Positions 3,165 through 51,137 of a DNA stretch of 64,000 bases are shown piece by piece. The DNA comes from Longimicrobiales bacterium. GTDB lineage: Bacteria > Gemmatimonadota > Gemmatimonadetes > Longimicrobiales > Gaopeijiaceae. Where the stretch lies: positions 3,232,001 to 3,296,000 of the forward strand of contig CBDFIQ010000002.1 of NCBI GenBank assembly GCA_965248195.1, in the 5' to 3' direction. The notes beneath the pieces were generated by a model. The model had not been told where the DNA came from, did not search any database, and saw only the letters and a program-made list of their open reading frames with translations. Position 1 is the stretch's first letter, and the number at the start of each line of letters is the position of its first letter. A program made the position numbers and the translations under genes.

Positions 3165-3446
3165 ATGAACAAATCCGATCTAGTAGACGCCCTTGCCGAC
3201 AGCGCTGGCATGACCAAGGCCGACTCATCTCGGGCCCTGGATGCCCTGTTCGGTTCCCGAGGTGTTATCGCTCGCGCTTTGAGGGCCGAGCAGCGGGTGC
3301 AAATTACTGGCTTTGGCACGTTTGAAGCGAAGCATCGCAAGGCTCGCATGGGCCGGAACCCTCGCACTGGCGCCACGATTCACATAGCGGCGTCGAAGAC
3401 TCCCGGATTCCGGGCAGGTAAGGGCTTCAAGGACGCCATCCAGTAG
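3165..3446 (+). CDS. hup: HU family DNA-binding protein
   Basis: MNKSDLVDALA...VQITGFGTF...GRNPRTG...PGFRAGKGFKDAI; GAGGAG SD. Confidence 0.97.
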   Translation: MNKSDLVDALADSAGMTKADSSRALDALFGSRGVIARALRAEQRVQITGFGTFEAKHRKARMGRNPRTGATIHIAASKTPGFRAGKGFKDAIQ

Positions 3447-41360: not shown

Positions 41361-42458
41361 ATGGGAGAGGGATTCCTCAGCTCTGAGGAGTACGACGAAC
41401 AGGCTCACCAACTATACAACAGTGGCGATTACGAAGGGGCCCTCGAGATGCTCAAAGAGGGCCTCTCACTTTATCCCAATGCGGTTGAGCTCTGCGTGGG
41501 CATGGGCTACGCCCGCCTCGCGAGGGAGGAGTACGCATGGGCGCGCAAGGCGTTCGACCGTGCGCTCGTTCTCGACCAAGGGCATGAGGACGCCCTTGTC
41601 GGGCTGGGCGAGACTCTTCTCCGCTTCGGTGAGCGCGACGCCGCGCTAGCGCTGTTCGAGCGGGTCGCGGGGTTGGGGTTCGAGGATGACGTGGAATTGA
41701 TGCTCACCATGGGGCGGGCGCTCTATCGTGAAAGCCTCTACGCCGAAAGCCGGGATGTGTTCGCCAAGGCTTCCGCCGCCCGCCCGGAAAGTGCGGAGGT
41801 CGCGGCATCGCTCGGTTACGCACTACATCGGCTGGGCGATGAGGTAGGGGCCGGGCGTCAAATCCGGAGATCTCTCCGCCTCGATCCTGACCTCCATGAG
41901 GCCAGGATCTACCTCGGCCATCTCCTGTACGATCGGGGGGACTGGGAGGGGGCGCTGCGCGAGTTCGAGCGCGTGCCGCCACCCGATCACTGGGACGGAT
42001 TGGCGATTTGGCGTCTCGTGGAGCTCAAACGAGCGCTCTGGCATGTGGAAGACGGGGACGAGCGGGTGGTGCCCTGGCAAAAGCGCCTGGACGAACTCGA
42101 AGCGCTACATGATCCCATCGACCGCCTACTTGCCGAGGTCGAAGCAGAGGTCGACGGCAGTGAGCGATCACTGGTCGACCCGAGTCAGCTTGAACTCTTC
42201 GAGCGGGGTGAACGAAGGGGCGCGACGGAGTCGCACGAGGTCCGGTTGGGAAATGGACATCTGTTCCGCGGAACATGGTACGGTATCGTGCGCCAGATGC
42301 GAGATCAGGCTGGGTTCTCCCATGAAACTCTGTCCCAGTACATGAGACGGCTAGCTGAGCGTTGGCACGAACAGCTTGCCGTGGAGATTCCCTTTGCCGA
42401 TCCCGAGAGCTTTCTCGAGGCCGCCATCCGCGCCGGCGTCGTGTATCTCGAAGACTGA
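41361..42458 (+). CDS. TPR-repeat protein with unknown C-terminal domain
   Basis: About six TPR units (e.g. ALVGLGETLLRFG, ARIYLGHLLYDRG); AAGGAG SD. Confidence 0.88.
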   Translation: MGEGFLSSEEYDEQAHQLYNSGDYEGALEMLKEGLSLYPNAVELCVGMGYARLAREEYAWARKAFDRALVLDQGHEDALVGLGETLLRFGERDAALALFERVAGLGFEDDVELMLTMGRALYRESLYAESRDVFAKASAARPESAEVAASLGYALHRLGDEVGAGRQIRRSLRLDPDLHEARIYLGHLLYDRGDWEGALREFERVPPPDHWDGLAIWRLVELKRALWHVEDGDERVVPWQKRLDELEALHDPIDRLLAEVEAEVDGSERSLVDPSQLELFERGERRGATESHEVRLGNGHLFRGTWYGIVRQMRDQAGFSHETLSQYMRRLAERWHEQLAVEIPFADPESFLEAAIRAGVVYLED

Positions 42459-42466
42459 GACGCACA

Positions 42467-43219
42467 ATGTCACAGTCTGGCGATGTTCTGGAGCGATTCG
42501 TCGAGGCACTCGTACAGCAGATCACCGCTACCCGTCCGGAGTACCTGACTGCTCCCTTTGCGGTTGCGGAAATCTATCAGGACCTCGTTCCGTATCGGTC
42601 CCACCGGAATGCGATCGGGGTCGAAATGAACGGGGATTACGAGGACGCCCTCCTGCGGATGCTCTCCGGCGAGGGCGACTACCTCGTGCTCGACTCCGAG
42701 GTGGCCCTGGGAGAGATGCAGGCGGAGCTCGCCAGGCCGAATCCCAACACGGCTCTGTTCCATGAGTTTGCGGCCGTGGACGTGCGTTTGCATCCCAGCC
42801 GGGTGCCCGTGGGCGCCGGCGACCGACCTAAAGTCCACGCCGAGGTGGAGGCCGATGGGCCGTCGGCCGAACCAGCAGCTTCGAACCCGAGCGAAGCCGA
42901 GCCAGCAAAGCCCTCGAGGCCTGAAGCCGGAGGGTCCGGCGAGGATGGCGTGGTGGGTCACATTGAGACGGCTTCTTCTCCACCTCTGGCGTCGGTAGAG
43001 GCGGCGGCACCCCACGGGCCCGATTCGGCGCATGCCGAATCCGGCGATGTAATGACCGTGTGTCACTGGTGCCGTGAGGATCTTCCGGTGCGAGACTCCA
43101 TTCATTTTTGTCCGTTCTGCGGCAGTGACCTCCGCCCATCCCCGTGTCGCGAGTGTGGCGAAGCGATGGAGGCTCGGTGGCAGTTCTGTGTTTCCTGTGG
43201 GACCGACGTACGTGGTTAG
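42467..43219 (+). CDS. Double zinc-ribbon protein
   Basis: CHWC/CPFC/CREC/CVSC at C-terminus, Pro/Ala/Glu linker, compact N-domain. Confidence 0.82.
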   Translation: MSQSGDVLERFVEALVQQITATRPEYLTAPFAVAEIYQDLVPYRSHRNAIGVEMNGDYEDALLRMLSGEGDYLVLDSEVALGEMQAELARPNPNTALFHEFAAVDVRLHPSRVPVGAGDRPKVHAEVEADGPSAEPAASNPSEAEPAKPSRPEAGGSGEDGVVGHIETASSPPLASVEAAAPHGPDSAHAESGDVMTVCHWCREDLPVRDSIHFCPFCGSDLRPSPCRECGEAMEARWQFCVSCGTDVRG

Positions 43220-43664
43220 ACAGATCGGAGCTCTCACCTGCCTGGTGGTCTTGGGGTGTGGGATCGAACCGAAGACGCCTCCCGAAGCGGTCGACGAGGC
43301 CAGCATGGATCCCCACGCGGCGATCGCCGCCAGTGCACAGGTCGTTCAGCTATCCGGAGGCCGAGACGTGGAGCATGTCGTCCCGCCCCACCTCGAGATC
43401 GAGAGGGGAGAATGGGTGCAATTCGTAACGCTCGACCGGCGTGTTCACACGGTGTCCTTCGTAGCTGACTCTCTTTCCACTGAGGCCTTCGAGTACCTGT
43501 CCGACACCGGGCAGCTCCAGGGCCCCCCGCTGCTCGCTCGCGGGAATCGATTCCTCGTCGATTTCCGGAACGCGCCCGCGGGTCGGTATGTTTTCTCGAG
43601 CGCCAGCCACGGAGACCCCGTCTTTGGCAGTGTAACCGTCCGGGAGCCTTCGGTGGAACGGTAG
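43212..43664 (+). CDS. Cupredoxin-fold lipoprotein lacking the type-1 Cu cysteine
   Basis: Lipobox VLGC; PPHLEIERGEWVQF...HTV...AGRYVFSSASH...GSVTV. Confidence 0.7.
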   Translation: MVRQIGALTCLVVLGCGIEPKTPPEAVDEASMDPHAAIAASAQVVQLSGGRDVEHVVPPHLEIERGEWVQFVTLDRRVHTVSFVADSLSTEAFEYLSDTGQLQGPPLLARGNRFLVDFRNAPAGRYVFSSASHGDPVFGSVTVREPSVER

Positions 43665-44923: not shown

Positions 44924-45801
44924 TGGACATCGAAAAGGTAGGCGTAGTCGGATGCGGGCTCATGGGCAGTGGGATCGCCGAAGTCGCGGCGAAGGCGAGC
45001 TTCGACGTCGTCGTGCGAGAGGTCAGTGATGACCTGATCGAGGCCGGCCGGGTGCGGATCCGGAAATCGCTCGACCGGGCAGTAGAGAGGGGGAAACTCA
45101 CGGTGGCCGACCGTGACGCGGCATGGAGTAGTCTCCGTTTTTCGACGGAGCTCTCGGCTTTGGCTGATCGCCATCTCGTGATCGAGGCAATCGTAGAGGA
45201 AGTCGCGGCGAAGAACGAGCTGTTTTCGGCTCTGGATGAACTTTGTGGGCCCGAGACGATTTTCGCTTCCAACACATCTTCTCTGACGATCACCGATATG
45301 GCGGCGGCGAGCGGACGGCCGGATCGTATGGTCGGCCTCCACTTCTTCAATCCGGTCCCCGTCATGGAGCTGGTGGAGGTCGTGCGCACCATCGCGACGA
45401 GCGACGAAGCGTTCAGCGCGGCGTATTCGTTTGCCGAGACGCTAGGCAAGAAGCCGATTACGGCGAAGGACAACTCTGGCTTCGTGGTGAACTTGCTCCT
45501 GGTGCCCTATATGCTCGACGCCATCCGACAGCTCGAGCGCGGCGTGGCCTCGATGGAGGATATCGATCGGGCGATGACGCTCGGACTGGGGCATCCCATG
45601 GGTCCGTTTACTCTTTGCGACTTCGTCGGGATCGATACGGTCTACCGTATCTCGGAGATCATGTTCGACGAGTATCGAGAGGGCCGATACGCGCCTCCTC
45701 CGCTTCTAAAGCGGATGGTCTCGATGGGGCGGTTCGGCCGGAAGAGGGGAAAAGGGTTCTACGATTGGTCCGGAGAAAAGCCGATTCCCCTGCCGCCCTG
45801 A
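44923..45801 (+). CDS. 3-hydroxybutyryl-CoA dehydrogenase
   Basis: GTG overlapping the thiolase stop; GCGLMGSG, EAIVE, SNTSS, HFFNP, HPMGP. Confidence 0.95.
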   Translation: MDIEKVGVVGCGLMGSGIAEVAAKASFDVVVREVSDDLIEAGRVRIRKSLDRAVERGKLTVADRDAAWSSLRFSTELSALADRHLVIEAIVEEVAAKNELFSALDELCGPETIFASNTSSLTITDMAAASGRPDRMVGLHFFNPVPVMELVEVVRTIATSDEAFSAAYSFAETLGKKPITAKDNSGFVVNLLLVPYMLDAIRQLERGVASMEDIDRAMTLGLGHPMGPFTLCDFVGIDTVYRISEIMFDEYREGRYAPPPLLKRMVSMGRFGRKRGKGFYDWSGEKPIPLPP

Positions 45802-45832
45802 GGGGGGATCATGAATGAAGCTCTTCGGTCCG

Positions 45833-46027
45833 CTAAACCTTGCCGCGGCGCTGGCGCCGCCGTTCGCGCCGAATGGCCGCCTCGCGCTTCCGCTTCCGCT
45901 GGGCGCTGGGCTTCTCGTAGAAGCGACGCTTCCGTAGTTCCGAGTAGAGACCCGACCGCTGCACCTTACGCTTGAAGCGGCGAAGCGCCCGCTCGAGGCT
46001 CTCGTTGTCTTGAATAGTTACTTCCAA
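45833..46027 (-). CDS. rpsU: 30S ribosomal protein bS21
   Basis: [13 protein letters not shown]...FYEKPS; TTG start with AAGGAG SD. Confidence 0.96.
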
Positions 46028-46135
46028 AGGACGACAACTCCCTTACTGTGCGATCGAATACTGGTCGATTGAACCCGAATTGACCCGAAAATCCAACCTC
46101 CGACCAAGACTCCAAGGATAGTGGCTACGGCCGAA

Positions 46136-46930
46136 TCAGGGAAGCCTTCGTTCACGGTGGAGGGTGTGCGTGTAGATCACGTACTCCTCCCTGTTGGCGA
46201 GGAAGTCCTCGACCCACACCTCGAACGGTGGCATGGGAATTCGTGCCTCGATGTACTCGATGACGAGCATGCCCAGCTGTAAACGATCCTTGGCGCCGAA
46301 ATCCACTCGTTGGCCCTCCAGAATCGAGTCGACCGCCGCCCCGAAGCTCTCGGGGTCGACGAGGGTGATGAAGTGGCAGACCTGATCGAGCCGGTAGGAC
46401 TGATAGAGAGACCGTAGTTCTGCACTATCCGACTCCCCCTCGGCGTCATCCAGACGCTCCTCGCTGGACGCCGAGAGCTCCCTCGAATTTTCCAGTAGCA
46501 GCTTCTTGAACCACCGGCGGGTCTTGGGAGATTGACGGGCCTCGGCCCCTTGCAACGTGTGCAAGGAGGACGAGAGCAACGCCCTGAAGAGCGGCCGCCC
46601 CAGCCCGCGGGCCTTATGGTCAATCTCCGCCTCGGATGCCTCGATGAATATGTCGGCGGTGCGCACCTCGTCTGATTCCCCGTCGCTGTCCTGCGGGCGG
46701 AACGCGAGATGTCCGTGCCACTGGCCGTCCCGACCGACGAAGGTCACGAGAAAACAGGACCAGGTTTCCTGTTCCCAGTCCAGAAATCCGAGCGATCGCC
46801 TACGGCATCGGTCGATGAGAGCGTGTTCGGTCAAGTCGTCGATCGGGTAGAGGGTACGATACCGAAGTCGGTCTTCAAGACCCCGGGGGAAAATGCGGTC
46901 GTGCCGTGGCGCAGGCAAGCAAAGATCCAA
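46136..46930 (-). CDS. Uncharacterised two-domain protein (novel domain B, then novel domain A)
   Basis: WHGHLAF...RTADIFIE...ALLSSSL, then LRSLYQSYRLDQV...PPFEVW. Confidence 0.8.
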   Translation of the reverse strand: MDLCLPAPRHDRIFPRGLEDRLRYRTLYPIDDLTEHALIDRCRRRSLGFLDWEQETWSCFLVTFVGRDGQWHGHLAFRPQDSDGESDEVRTADIFIEASEAEIDHKARGLGRPLFRALLSSSLHTLQGAEARQSPKTRRWFKKLLLENSRELSASSEERLDDAEGESDSAELRSLYQSYRLDQVCHFITLVDPESFGAAVDSILEGQRVDFGAKDRLQLGMLVIEYIEARIPMPPFEVWVEDFLANREEYVIYTHTLHRERRLP

Positions 46931-46957
46931 CCCTGGTAGACGGATCCGTCGAGCTTC

Positions 46958-46987
46958 TTGCCAGAACCGTAAACATATTGTTATCGT
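46958..46987 (+). promoter_or_regulatory. Sigma70-like promoter
   Basis: TTGCCA-18 bp-TATCGT with TGn extended -10. Confidence 0.5.
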
Positions 46988-46992
46988 GGAGG

Positions 46993-47086
46993 AATCAGAG
47001 TCTAAGAATTGAGCATTCCCGCATTACAAAGCCTTTTATGGATGTTTGTGATGCAGGAGAGTCCCGGCAGGAATGCCGGTTTTTTT
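46993..47086 (+). ncRNA. Candidate sRNA or attenuator leader (~95 nt)
   Basis: Promoter upstream; hairpin GCATTACAAA/TTTGTGATGC (47021-47054); terminator CCGGCA-GGAA-TGCCGG-T7. Confidence 0.5.
47064..47086 (+). terminator. Intrinsic terminator upstream of the 47164 gene
   Basis: CCGGCA GGAA TGCCGG TTTTTTT. Confidence 0.7.
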
Positions 47087-47163
47087 GCCTCGATTCTCTC
47101 GGAGGGCCGCTTCAAGGGTCGGCCGATTGAGGCAGAGACCGCCCATTGGAGATGAGGAGACAA

Positions 47164-48075
47164 ATGGAGGGGACGGCTTTCTCGCTTCACTCTACGGCCC
47201 GGCCGGAGGCCATGGCTGACGTTCCCGGCGTCTGTGACCTTCCACTGACCAGGGCTGTGGTCCACTACCGCGATCTTCACGAGGTGGATCCGCCAGGCGG
47301 GCGCATCCAGGACATTGGACTCGCCCTCGTACTCGAGGGCCGTTTTGCTTCATCCGCCGAAGTCCTGGATCTGGGAAGCTCCACGGTGAAGATGTTGGAC
47401 TTGAGTTCGGAGCTGGTGGTTCTCGACTGGGTCTATGAGCCGACGCTGAAGCACGTCAATCGTTTGCTCATGGAGAGGGCCCGGGGAGGCGAGGAGGTGG
47501 ACGCGGCTGGGCGGCTGGGAACCTACTCGTTCCAGATGGCTCTGACCTTGCTTGGCCGCCTCGGATACGGGCCGCTCACGCGCCCCACGATTCTCAGGAT
47601 TGGATTCCGAGACATATGCCGGGACCTGGATTTTCACGAGGGGACCGCGGTCCGGATCGTCCTCGGTGAGCATCGGGTTGCACGCGCGCACCTCGACTAT
47701 GACGCGAACTCCTTGGTGTTCAGTACGCCTTCGCCGGAGCCGGATGCCATCCTCGAAGCCGGCGTGCTCGAAGCGTTCCCTCACAGCGACGTCATGCGTC
47801 TCAGTGAGGCCCACAACGGTGGGTCGGTGCAATACCAGGTCCGTCTTTCGTTCCCCGCGACGTTGGCCGAGGCGCGTGGGGAGCTGCGTTCGATCCGGCG
47901 AGGCCTCGGGGGACTGTTGGCCCGCTTCGAGCCAGAGCGCTTCAAGGGGATCGAGCAGCATCTCACCACCTTCGGATCGCGGGACACACTCTCCCAATTC
48001 CATGTCCGGGAGCGACGGAGGAAGGTCGAGGCGCTACGAACCCGTCATGGGGCCGGCGGCGGCACCGTCCACTAG
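47164..48075 (+). CDS. Uncharacterised protein (303 aa)
   Basis: GAGGAG SD before ATG 47164; natural codon usage; no recognised motif. Confidence 0.75.
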   Translation: MEGTAFSLHSTARPEAMADVPGVCDLPLTRAVVHYRDLHEVDPPGGRIQDIGLALVLEGRFASSAEVLDLGSSTVKMLDLSSELVVLDWVYEPTLKHVNRLLMERARGGEEVDAAGRLGTYSFQMALTLLGRLGYGPLTRPTILRIGFRDICRDLDFHEGTAVRIVLGEHRVARAHLDYDANSLVFSTPSPEPDAILEAGVLEAFPHSDVMRLSEAHNGGSVQYQVRLSFPATLAEARGELRSIRRGLGGLLARFEPERFKGIEQHLTTFGSRDTLSQFHVRERRRKVEALRTRHGAGGGTVH

Positions 48076-48090
48076 CCCCGTGGCTACGCC

Positions 48091-48701
48091 ATGATCGTCA
48101 CTCCTGAATTCGCCGGGCTCGACGGGCGAAAGGCGCCACCTGAGCCGGTGGACCGTACCGTTTCGCCGTCCGATCTGGGGGCGTTGAAGGGACACTACGA
48201 GGAGTATTGCCGGCAGCAGGTAACCCTTCTCCTGGAGATCATCCCGCTGGAGGCGGTGAGGCCGCTTTACCGTCGCACGAGGATTTGGGCGACAGAGCGG
48301 GGGCTTCACGACACCAAGGATCCCATGTCGACCCTACGCGTTTTTTGCCGTGAGGTGCTGCCCCTCCACCATTCGAAGTCTGGCTCTTGCATCATGCAAA
48401 CCATCGCGTGGCCCCTGCGGGTGAGGGGGTGGAATGGACGCCTCTAGCCGAGCCGATGGAGCTGGTCGCGGTCGATGTCAGGCGAATGGAGCATGAGTCG
48501 GAGCCGTGGCAGGGAACGCTCGAGGTGTACCGAGGCGGCGATGCGTGGCGGGGGCTCATTCGATTCCAGCGCGAGGGAGAGGAAGGCCACTTCCGCACCA
48601 GCGAAATTTTTTGTGAAGATGACCTCCAAGACCTTCGAAATCGTTTCAATTCGTTCACTGCGCCTACCATGAGCGCATTTCTGCGCTCGACCCTCCCGTA
48701 A
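48091..48701 (+). CDS. Uncharacterised two-domain protein (domain A, then domain B), split by a 1-nt frameshift at ~48367
   Basis: Adding one C at CTC-CAC-CAT gives LPLPPFEVWLLHHAN and joins ORFs 48091..48447 and 48387..48701 into 203 aa. Confidence 0.8.
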
Positions 48702-48864
48702 ACCGAGTTTTTAGTAAAAAACGATCTCGGCAGGGAGTCAAGATTTTGCGGAATCAGTTCTCGTAAGTTCCCATCAGAGTTGAATTTCGCTCCTCCGAAC
48801 ACACGAACCCCGGGGTCCTTCGAGCGTCGAGGAACAGTTGATTTCGAGCCAAATATCGAATTCA

Positions 48865-48889
48865 TAAGTAATTGCTGTGTAATGACTTA
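48865..48889. promoter_or_regulatory. AT-rich spaced palindrome (protein-binding / dif-like geometry)
   Basis: TAAGTAATT-GCTGTGT-AATGACTTA, arms match 8 of 9. Confidence 0.5.
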
Positions 48890-48928
48890 CATAATTACGT
48901 TGGGTGCACGACATTTTTGATAACAGGC

Positions 48929-48957
48929 TTGCGCGCGTCGGAAATGACGTGTATGAT
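48929..48957 (+). promoter_or_regulatory. Sigma70-like promoter
   Basis: TTGCGC-17 bp-TATGAT; second candidate TTGACA(48986)-19 bp-TACAGT. Confidence 0.5.
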
Positions 48958-48994
48958 GGCTTCGCCTCGACTCTGTTGCTTTTCCTTGACACTG

Positions 48995-49048
48995 TCGAAA
49001 TTCACGATGGTACAGTCGATTCTATCGGATCATTTCGTGAATTTTCGA
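48995..49048. repeat. Inverted repeat / hairpin upstream of the RHH-like gene
   Basis: AAATTCACGA/TCGTGAATTT perfect 10 bp, flanked by TCGA, with inner GU-containing pairs. Confidence 0.7.
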
Positions 49049-49076
49049 ACCATCAAAATCCGGGAGAATTGTGCCC

Positions 49077-49280
49077 ATGTGGGAGACGCGCTCTGTGGAG
49101 ATTACCGTCCGACTTCCCCATGATATTGCAGAGCAGGCCGAGGAGGTGCAGAAGGCGGATCCGGAATTTTTGAGCCGGGTCGTGCTCTACGGTCTCACTC
49201 GCCGATCTATCTATCAGCAGCTGCGCGAGCGCAGCCGGGACCAAGCTTCCCAGGATCTTCCCGCCCCGCGCGCGATGTAA
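49077..49280 (+). CDS. Small ribbon-helix-helix-like protein (67 aa)
   Basis: GGAG SD; SVEITVRLPHDIAEQAEEV...FLSRVVLYGL gives a strand-helix-helix pattern. Confidence 0.65.
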   Translation: MWETRSVEITVRLPHDIAEQAEEVQKADPEFLSRVVLYGLTRRSIYQQLRERSRDQASQDLPAPRAM

Positions 49281-49392
49281 GGGGCTTGACTCTTCCGCCG
49301 CACCCCAATAATACCTAAGGGCAAGTAGGGCAGGCACTTGCACGTCGCGGGCCGGCGTGCGGGCACGCCTGTACAGTGCTGGGAGGGACGGC

Positions 49393-49740
49393 ATGAGCGA
49401 CGCCCGGCCGGAAAAGCCCCAAAAGCTGAGCCCTGATTTGGCGGAACGCGTGCTCCGGGCAAAGTACTTGGACTACTGTTCCTCTCAAATCGCTGAGCAT
49501 CTGCTCCTGCTTTCGCCGGACGAGATCTACGTCCTTGCTCAGGAGGCGCTCCGTGCGGGCGGCCAGAAGAGCGAACCTTCCCACGAGCAGATGGTGCGAT
49601 TGGCCACCGAGGGTGTCGCTCGACGGCTCACGCTCCCTCCGTTCGAAACGTGGGCTGATGAATACGAACGGGACCCCGCCCGGTATGACGATCAGCTGAT
49701 GGGTCTTTGGAAAAGCGAGTTGGAGGACGTACCTGACTAG
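49393..49740 (+). CDS. Uncharacterised stand-alone domain A protein (115 aa)
   Basis: GGAGG SD; LRAKYLDYCSSQI...LPPFETW; own promoter candidate TTGACT at 49286. Confidence 0.8.
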   Translation: MSDARPEKPQKLSPDLAERVLRAKYLDYCSSQIAEHLLLLSPDEIYVLAQEALRAGGQKSEPSHEQMVRLATEGVARRLTLPPFETWADEYERDPARYDDQLMGLWKSELEDVPD

Positions 49741-50168
49741 AACGGCAGATCGTCATCCGGTTCGGAGATCGGCGGGCCCGGTGACGGGCTGGGATCGCGC
49801 TGAGCGCCTTCGCCGCGGCCACCTCCACCTCCACCGGCGGTGGACCCGAGCATGACCATCTCTGTGACGATGACATCGGTCCAATACCTTTTCTGGCCGT
49901 CCCTTTCGGATTCGGAGTACTCGATACGCCCCTCGACGTAGAGCCGGTCACCCTTCTTTACCCATTGATCGACGATTTCGACGAGGCGACCGAAGAAAGT
50001 CAGACGGTGCCACTCGGTCTTCTCCCTCTGCTGCCCGGAGCCGTCGTTCCACTTGCGGTTGGTGGCCAGGGACACCTTCGCAACTTGGGTGCCCGAAGAG
50101 GTGGCTCGGACGTCAGGGTCGTTTCCCACGTTTCCGATGAGCATGACCTTGTTGAGGGACCGGCTCAT
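49737..50168 (-). CDS. ssb: Single-stranded DNA-binding protein
   Basis: SLNKVMLIGNVGNDP, TEWHR, YVEGR, C-terminal DDDLPF. Confidence 0.97.
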   Translation of the reverse strand: MSRSLNKVMLIGNVGNDPDVRATSSGTQVAKVSLATNRKWNDGSGQQREKTEWHRLTFFGRLVEIVDQWVKKGDRLYVEGRIEYSESERDGQKRYWTDVIVTEMVMLGSTAGGGGGGRGEGAQRDPSPSPGPPISEPDDDLPF

Positions 50169-50351
50169 TATCGTGCACTCCTTGGAGATCGACGCGGGCT
50201 CACGCGCCATTTGGGCCGTGCGGCGCCACAAGGTACCAAGGGCTCCGAGCGGGCGCTATGGGCGGGTGGCGCCCCCTGATCGGCCCTCCTAGCTTTTGCC
50301 TGATGGGCCCCACCCAGGTGCCCTCCTACGCCGGATCTCGCCGAGCCTGCC

Positions 50352-51137
50352 ATGAGTGATCTTCAGTACATTCGAGTGGAGTGGGAGGGGGAGCTGGCCA
50401 TTGTCGTGATCGACCGCGCCGATAAGCTCAACGCCCTGAATGCGGAGGTAGTTCAAGAGCTCGGGGACGTGTTCCGCGACCTCAAGGACGACGACGATGT
50501 CCTGGGAGTGATCCTGACGGGGGCGGGTGAGAAGGCCTTTGTCGCCGGAGCGGACATTGGCGAGCTCGCTCAGCTCACACCGCTCACCGGCGTGAAGGTC
50601 AGCCGGGAGGGGCAGAGGATCTTTGCCGAGATTGAGCGCTTTCCAAAGCCCGTGCTAGCTGCAGTTGGAGGGTACGCATTGGGTGGCGGATGCGAGCTCG
50701 CTCTCGCGTGCCACCTCCGGGTCGCCAGCGAAAATGCCCGCTTTGGGCTTCCCGAGGTGGGGCTCGGCACGATACCCGGCTACGGCGGAACGATGAGGCT
50801 CGCCAGGGTCGTCGGGTTCGGTCATGCCATAGAGATGGTCCTGACCGGCCGGATGGTCGACGCGGAGAGGGCCGAACGGATGGGCCTGGTGAGCGCCGTC
50901 TATCCCCAGGAGGCGCTCCTCGACCAGGCGAAGGTGTTCATTCGGGGAATTACGAAGAATGGCCCGGTCGCCGTTCGCATGGCATTGGAGTCCATTTATT
51001 TGGCCCAAAGCTCGGCACCGGCGGACGCCGCGAGCTTCGAATCCGCAATGTTCGGATTACTCGCTTCCACCACCGATATGAAGGAAGGAATGACGGCCTT
51101 TCTCGAGAAGCGAAAGGCTGCCTTCAAGGGCGAATAG
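50352..51137 (+). CDS. Enoyl-CoA hydratase (crotonase)
   Basis: AFVAGADI, GGGCELA, FGLPEVGLG, EGMTAFLEKR. Confidence 0.95.
   Translation: MSDLQYIRVEWEGELAIVVIDRADKLNALNAEVVQELGDVFRDLKDDDDVLGVILTGAGEKAFVAGADIGELAQLTPLTGVKVSREGQRIFAEIERFPKPVLAAVGGYALGGGCELALACHLRVASENARFGLPEVGLGTIPGYGGTMRLARVVGFGHAIEMVLTGRMVDAERAERMGLVSAVYPQEALLDQAKVFIRGITKNGPVAVRMALESIYLAQSSAPADAASFESAMFGLLASTTDMKEGMTAFLEKRKAAFKGE

Follow-up and report, generated by a model that had tools for sequence, protein, structure and literature searches.

A five-gene cassette (g1–g5) sits between rpsU and ssb in the genome of a Longimicrobiales bacterium (assembly GCA_965248195.1, contig CBDFIQ010000002.1, positions 3,232,001 to 3,296,000; this whole stretch of 64,000 nucleotides is referred to as the window). 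A 16-bp operator found at both promoters of the cassette also lies upstream of the type IV pilus assembly operon and of a LysM cell-wall gene. What was observed directly is the gene set, its conservation, and the common box with its positions. The interpretation proposed for them is tentative and is held with a little under even confidence: the cassette may be a second-tier regulatory switch for a piliated cell-surface state, likely under LexA2, a non-cleavable LexA paralogue.

The host genome (G000) comprises 4.86 Mb in two contigs (C1 and C2), with the window on C2; g1 is on the minus strand, and g2–g5 are on the plus strand. Other G-numbers denote other genomes, and f1–f12 denote families, f1 being that of the window. 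A sequence-only reading of the locus had described five unannotated open reading frames (ORFs), and all five are present.

The shared operator and its conserved positions

The operator is a box of the type GKAAACA-NN-TGTTTMC. Box 1 (46969..46984; 18.5 bits) lies inside the −35/−10 spacer of the sigma-70-type promoter of g2 and g3 (46958..46987, plus strand; TTGCCA, 18 nt, TATCGT), which is kept in relatives. Box 2 (48830..48845; 15.2 bits) is located upstream of g4, 35 bp before a 25-bp palindrome, and a second upstream position (48714..48729), 151 bp before the palindrome, scores below 6 bits in this genome. The likely promoter of g4 and g5 (48929..48957, plus strand; TTGCGC, 17 nt, TATGAT) was read by eye; it is kept in relatives and falls below the promoter-scan threshold. 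The box occupies the g2 promoter spacer in 20 of 28 g2 upstream regions, and boxes precede the g4 palindrome by 35 bp in 27 of 44 loci and by 151 bp in 12 of 44. A matrix derived from the g4 element picks the g2 spacer as its best match in 16 of 20 regions.

A genome scan placed the box before pilM, a LysM gene, Ku/LigD, a 127-aa gene beside rho, nfo, lexA2, and pilB. Apart from lexA, these names (pilM, pilB, LysM, Ku/LigD, rho, and nfo) are presumptive, being assigned from sequence motifs and gene order. The box matrix is short (16.5 bits) and isolated weak matches are near chance, such that conserved positions carry the argument. The pilM box is kept in 27 of 30 cases (26 at 10 bits or more; in-gene control, 0) and the LysM-gene box in 25 of 28 (21, compared with 1 for the in-gene control) after two loci that were too short had been dropped; both counts include this genome itself. 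The box of the 127-aa gene is kept in four of five relatives and that of Ku in all three.

Palindromic boxes number 32 in f1 compared with 7 for reversed-pattern controls (17 genomes), and 14 in f4 compared with 22 (72 genomes). The pilM box was found elsewhere in 1 of 12 cases in f4, 0 of 8 in f5, 0 of 9 in other families, and one of seven further f1 genomes. Six sites in G125, a genome outside the order, share no common gene set. The box was rejected as an SOS box: none is listed at the genome's own recA or lexA1, and f5 regions reaching at least 6 bits amount to 1 of 5 for recA and 0 of 5 for lexA1. The box-bearing 127-aa gene (C1:1164834–1165214, L220) is unnamed and divergent from rho. 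A secreted surface-protein gene (C2:262705–264399, L224) has two strong boxes upstream, and its homologues in G005 and G011 are also near a box.

LexA2 and g4 as candidate binders of the box

The genome has an intact LexA1 and, in addition, LexA2, which lacks the cleavage site and the Ser-Lys dyad. The LexA2 gene (C2:1324490–1325137, L143) is outside the window, between gltX-like and tadA-like genes, and its product matches PF01726 (LexA DNA-binding domain; E = 6e-20) and PF00717 (S24; E = 3e-12), both above cut-off. LexA2 was found in 13 of 16 f1 genomes and 24 of 31 f5 genomes (E = 1e-20). The Ala-Gly site is absent in all 14 LexA2 rows of f1, and the serine is absent in 13 of these; the cleavage site and dyad are kept in most f5 and f2 rows (both in 7 of 12 for f5).

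In G016, G151, and G167, LexA2 was not found, and all three genomes have no strict boxes and no pilM match. G151 and G167 keep g4, and G016 lacks it. In G167, g4, g2, and the g2 promoter are retained and the spacer box is gone (best score −2.3 bits, compared with 16–21 bits in three of three comparators). The LysM box is absent in all three genomes without LexA2 and present at 7 bits or more in seven of eight comparators, and boxes at both g4 positions are absent in both of the LexA2-minus genomes compared and present in 9 of 10 comparators. Because the box is lost where LexA2 is missing even though g4 is kept, control likely comes from outside the cassette. The earlier suggestion that the locus has its own regulator is likely wrong in this respect.

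The core of the box, AAC-N4-GTT, is similar to GAAC-N4-GTTC, the LexA motif of Gram-positive bacteria (PMC3323433). The lexA1 and recA promoters carry a different element, TTCG direct repeats with an 11-bp period (upstream of lexA1 at C2:1213230–1213300, L142, and of recA in L340–L349). This repeat is likely the SOS box of this class, like the alphaproteobacterial GTTC-N7-GTTC type. LexA2 is put forward with slightly better than even confidence as the protein that would bind the 16-bp box; binding by g4 is rather unlikely, and binding by another factor is less likely still.

Were g4 itself the transcription factor acting at the box, the cassette would be the autoregulated master of the pilus and LysM regulon, with the domain A proteins as modulators. 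This scenario, considered unlikely overall, is favored by the boxes flanking the cassette's own promoters, by the f1-limited range of the box, which matches an f1-specific sequence of the g4 strand, by the joint absence of g4 and boxes in G016, by the altered g4 strand of G167, and by the poorly conserved autoregulation of lexA2. However, it conflicts with the lack of boxes in G151 and G167, which keep g4, and with the LexA-type AAC-N4-GTT core. The ribbon-helix-helix (RHH) status of g4, moreover, comes from a sequence pattern, and the strand that would read DNA is less conserved than the C-terminal helix.

Several observations weigh against placing the cassette under LexA2 in a pilus switch. 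The LexA2-loss comparison comprises three genomes, one of which (G167) also has an altered g4 strand, so that g4 remains a candidate binder. G158 and G177 have LexA2 but no strict palindromes, and a box upstream of lexA2 itself was found in only 4 of 30 genomes (p ≤ 0.05). In f5, the box count is little enriched (16, compared with 11 for controls), and a pilM box of at least 10 bits is present in 0 of 8 cases even though LexA2 is widespread in this family. In six f1 genomes belonging to other genera, the 320 bp preceding pilM contain no box, and the upstream DNA there looks coding. The g4–g5 core is also found in three families (f2, f6, and f7) in which no box was seen. In relatives, nfo (0 of 4) and ftsE (0 of 3) were not supported as conserved box targets. 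The predicted g4–g5 complex, discussed below, passes its score mark only weakly. Finally, a common regulator is no proof of a pilus role.

Architecture and conservation of the cassette

The claim that three of the five genes contain the same domain (A) was confirmed for g1, g3, and g5 by motifs and by profile-profile comparison of separate ortholog sets (97.8–98.8% probability among the three A copies). The motifs L[RK]xxYxxYxxxQ[VI] and PPFE[VT]W each occur three times in six frames of the whole 4.86-Mb genome, all at the cassette. Their reported spacing holds for g1 (49 residues) and g5 (48 residues), whereas the 48 residues given for g3 do not hold, since its motifs are in different frames and 60.67 codons apart from start to start. 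At about 95–100 aa, with five helices in the g1 model, domain A is longer than the estimate of about 70 aa. A second domain, B, is fused to A in both orders (98.8% probability between the B copies). The gene g1 (46136..46834, minus strand) has B (approximately residues 11–97) followed by A (approximately 135–228); ortholog alignment indicates that it probably starts at TTG 46834, giving 232 aa. The gene g3 (48091..48701, plus strand) has A followed by B, and g5 (49393..49740, plus strand) encodes A alone in an acidic protein of 115 aa (23 D+E compared with 14 K+R). In this assembly, g3 is a single A–B gene split by a one-base frameshift near 48365. Relatives have 29 distinct intact A–B ORFs, and a few have a broken g3 or g1 as well. 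For the frameshift, public contigs have one extra base in three of four runs, and coverage lacking the extra base was counted too. The view that the duplications are old is borne out by the profile comparison and the distribution of the copies across relatives.

In the g1 model (predicted local distance difference test, pLDDT, 82; predicted template modeling score, pTM, 0.49), B is a three-stranded sheet with two helices and A is helical; this pTM gives no fixed arrangement of A and B. A fold search with the whole g1 model yielded no clear match. A g1 profile had 419 matches among 1.84 billion proteins, and the best 150 of the 419 are all unnamed and no longer than 377 aa. Pfam and NCBIfam gave nothing above cut-off for any of g1–g5, PHROGs gave no match for the cassette proteins, PADLOC defence models matched none of the five at E 0.1, and a PDB sequence search returned nothing below E 0.2. 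The ESM Atlas gave no usable match for g5 or g2, a result that speaks to neither novelty nor absence. The two domains, which the sequence-only reading did not recognize, thus match no characterized family in Pfam, NCBIfam, PHROGs, PADLOC, or PDB.

Both domains have other contexts. A methyltransferase-like protein has an N-terminal domain homologous to A (profile match 91.6%, E = 8e-7); this fusion is present in 71 of 72 f4, 29 of 31 f5, and 0 of 16 f1 genomes, and its Methyltransf_25 (Pfam) match is below cut-off. The fusion protein (L078:5191–6051, L080–L129) is found class-wide near rho, ruvX, mltG, and tdh-kbl, and A occurs alone in f2 and f3. Domain B is also found as a lone gene, including one at C1:676830 of this genome; the lone-B set of the profile comparison had 18 rows, one of which is the g3 piece of this genome. 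A lone B gene lies within the same 17–20 kb as the fusion gene in eight of eight f4/f8 loci, five of which had been picked for that proximity, and in none of seven f5 loci. Two f7 loci have g4, A, and B as separate genes in direct succession.

Comparison with relatives indicates vertical inheritance of the cassette, purifying selection on its genes, and conserved synteny within Longimicrobiales. Ratios of nonsynonymous to synonymous substitution rates (dN/dS) against three relatives are 0.08–0.38 for all six segments (g1, 0.14–0.16; g2, 0.08–0.12), the highest being that of the A part of g3. A match to g5 is found in 35 of 41 near relatives, and an A-only gene directly follows g4 in 50 of 52 distinct g4 copies. 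In the 151-genome phylum sample, g4 is present in f1 (15 of 16), f3 (1 of 1), f6 (1 of 1), and f7 (7 of 7) and is missing in f2 (0 of 2), f4 (0 of 72), and f5 (0 of 31), with three other f2 genomes outside this count also having it; g2 is limited to f1 (9 of 16) and f3 (1 of 1). Co-occurrence and synteny of the genes in other genomes are supported. The genes g1, g2, and g3 have been lost independently of each other, over the class as a whole A and B are also found singly or joined to other domains, and the whole cassette is absent in G016 and some f2 genomes.

These losses bear on whether the cassette could be a housekeeping interaction or scaffold set, serving as a nucleoid, replication, or methyltransferase accessory and belonging to the pilus regulon incidentally. 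Such a function, which seems improbable, would be in keeping with the neighbors ssb, recF, dciA, and gyrB, with the use of A in the methyltransferase-like protein of f4 and f5, and with Ku as another box target. However, piecemeal loss of the parts, and complete loss in G016 and some f2 genomes, argue that the cassette is not essential, and no replication link was found, dnaA being elsewhere. A replication origin at the cassette was rejected, with no DnaA box within one mismatch in 45800–50400 and with dnaA and dnaN on the other contig. The neighbors also include thiolase, hbd, and enoyl-CoA hydratase genes; these names and those of recF and gyrB are our assumptions from sequence motifs, and dciA is a library match. 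Upstream of the thiolase gene, genes for TPR, double zinc-ribbon, and cupredoxin-like proteins (41361–43664) are conserved, and their synteny with the cassette extends to many f1 loci.

The gene g2 (47164..48075, plus strand) encodes a 303-aa orphan, predicted to have an SH3-like barrel, a helical linker, and an alpha/beta domain (pLDDT 80; pTM 0.76). Its best fold match (Z 6.8) is in the range of common arrangements, and unrelated SH3-like and transaminase folds score equally high. Within the PemK/MazF group, Kid/MazF align to the N-terminal domain (Z 6.7–6.8, root-mean-square deviation 3.1–3.4, 74–82 residues) with no Pfam match, and Foldseek matches of the C-terminal domain to YbjN and type III chaperones have E values of 0.016–0.05, with YbjN outside the top 50 on realignment. 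No sequence similarity of g2 to PemK/MazF, YbjN, or these chaperones was found. The Kid/MazF alignment, the small two-gene g4–g5 unit, and the carriage of g4 alone by phages might suggest a toxin-antitoxin or anti-phage module, with g4 as an RHH antitoxin and g5 or the MazF-like barrel of g2 as the toxin. This is very unlikely: the cassette is a single copy at a fixed place in the core genome and has been syntenic over the long term, PADLOC and PHROGs gave no matches, the fold score is a tie, and g2 is lost independently of g4.

The 67-aa product of g4 (49077..49280, plus strand) had been called RHH-like. Its strand-helix-helix sequence pattern fits this description, but no RHH profile match supports it: Pfam RHH models match 0 of 45 g4 members at E 0.05, and the NCBIfam model NF041551 scores 16.7 bits (E = 0.0056), below its cut-off of 30. 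The C-terminal helix is the most conserved part, and the putative DNA-reading strand is less so. Complex prediction for two g4 chains with g5 scored 0.47, compared with 0.01 for the best control; contacts agree at 76% or more, the partner pLDDT is at least 71, and the two g4 chains fold with pLDDT 77–79. Of 157 solved pairs, 116 passed the score mark, as did 2 of 215 mismatched pairs; among those that passed, only 18 solved pairs and both mismatches scored 0.60 or less. The prediction hints weakly that g4 binds g5. The protein-interaction role envisaged earlier gained weak support, for g4 with g5; A–A or A–B binding is conjectural, and the g1 model shows no fixed arrangement of A and B.

Copies of g4 are also found in phages. 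At C2:536.9 kb, a prophage carries a lone g4 copy (83% identical, dN/dS 0.08) surrounded by genes of the RecT, RecE, and CI-like kinds. The prophage-like region (C2:530798–540495, L061, and approximately C2:551800–560300) has integrase-like, RecT, RecE, topoisomerase-like, and CI genes. One scan of IMG/VR viral contigs gave two more copies, one of full length (80%) and one matching residues 22–51 only, with no A, B, or g2 within 3 kb of g4 on either contig. Pili are common phage receptors, and it may be speculated that phage g4 acts in superinfection exclusion.

The intergenic DNA had been described as AT-rich, and the g3–g4 spacer is indeed among the lowest 0.13% in GC of the 350-bp windows of its contig. 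It contains the palindrome TAA-N4-TTG-N5-CAA-N4-TTA (48865..48889), found in 43 of 45 g4 upstream regions, a good number of these belonging to closely related genomes. Across the genome, 14 sites reach at least 18 bits (10 on C2, compared with 0–1 in shuffles), and copies are located close to tRNA genes, to promoters, and to a DnaA-box-like site. The pattern is found in 131 of 151 phylum genomes and is equally common in genomes without g4, which rules it out as the g4 operator and indicates a global factor as its binder. Both halves agree with the TAA-N4-TTG of the IHF consensus, TAAnnnnTTGATW (PMC10380432). In another source (PMC6907758), the rows for the IHF and H-NS motifs look interchanged, and its motifs were set aside. 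The genome carries one IHF-like and one HU-like gene, and the palindrome is likely a site for single-subunit (homodimeric) IHF. Elsewhere in the window, a strong IHF-type palindrome is located at 493–521 and the HU-like gene at 3165–3440. Another palindrome, at C1:789976, is beside a DnaA-box-like 9-mer about 10 kb before dnaA and is an origin candidate, but the skew minimum is nearer 1.0 Mb.

The g2 leader contains a terminator-like hairpin with a T run (47064..47089, plus strand), and similar hairpins are found in close relatives; it may be an attenuator or a short RNA. The small RNA candidate proposed earlier comes down to this terminator-like hairpin (47064–47079), which has no Rfam match. 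Public RNA contigs of relatives contain parts of all five genes, which says nothing on transcription or its level.

Proposed mechanism and relation to known systems

In the proposed switch under LexA2, this protein would bind the box and, within the −35/−10 spacer, repress g2–g3 and the LysM gene; pilM, whose box directly follows its promoter, would be repressed as well. From its position 35 bp ahead of the IHF-type bend and about 100 bp upstream of the −35 element, box 2 would allow looping and possibly have the opposite effect. The g4 protein would dimerize and bind the acidic A protein g5, and g1 and g3, presenting A (and B) in two orders, may compete for g4 or retune it. Phages carrying g4 alone would disturb the balance between g4 and the A proteins. 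A bolder version, regarded as unlikely, is a lifestyle switch of new parts: a dead LexA paralogue would set the pilus and cell-wall regulon, three A proteins, fused to B in permuted orders, would titrate a g4 dimer, and phages would take g4 to shut down the pilus after entry, thereby excluding competitors.

Gemmatimonadota are widespread and scarcely cultured. A literature search found no paper on a LexA or pilus regulon in this phylum, and supplements of Gemmatimonadota genomics papers could list these genes; nothing on this locus was found in PMC3919608 or PMC11651109. What appears new is that the cassette belongs to a regulon that spans the family and includes pilus and cell-wall genes; its inner mechanism, which we infer, is weakly supported. 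Four unnamed protein families (A, B, g2, and g4) are thereby tied to a process, and the box, its targets, and the two named candidate binders are open to purified-protein tests without culturing the host. The findings suggest that LexA has been repurposed for pili in a second case, that an IHF site can be symmetric, and that phages have captured a host regulator.

RHH regulators such as Arc, MetJ, and CopG have an alternating strand followed by two helices. The g4 protein, put at about 55 aa in this comparison, likewise shows the pattern of an alternating strand and two helices; unlike these regulators, it is conserved most in the C-terminal helix and is followed by a fixed partner gene of an unnamed family. 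The palindrome differs from described IHF sites (PMC10380432) in being symmetric, and in this genome a single IHF-like gene stands in place of an alpha and beta pair. The closest parallel to the role envisaged for LexA2 is the LexA of Synechocystis PCC 6803. This non-cleavable LexA lacks the Ala-Gly site and the catalytic serine, has no SOS role, binds pilA promoters, and represses or activates promoters of pilus genes (PMC4759255). By comparison, LexA2 differs in being a second paralogue beside an intact LexA1 and in having its binding deduced here; its candidate targets are pilM, pilB, and the LysM gene instead of minor pilins, and no counterpart of the cassette is described there (PMC4759255).

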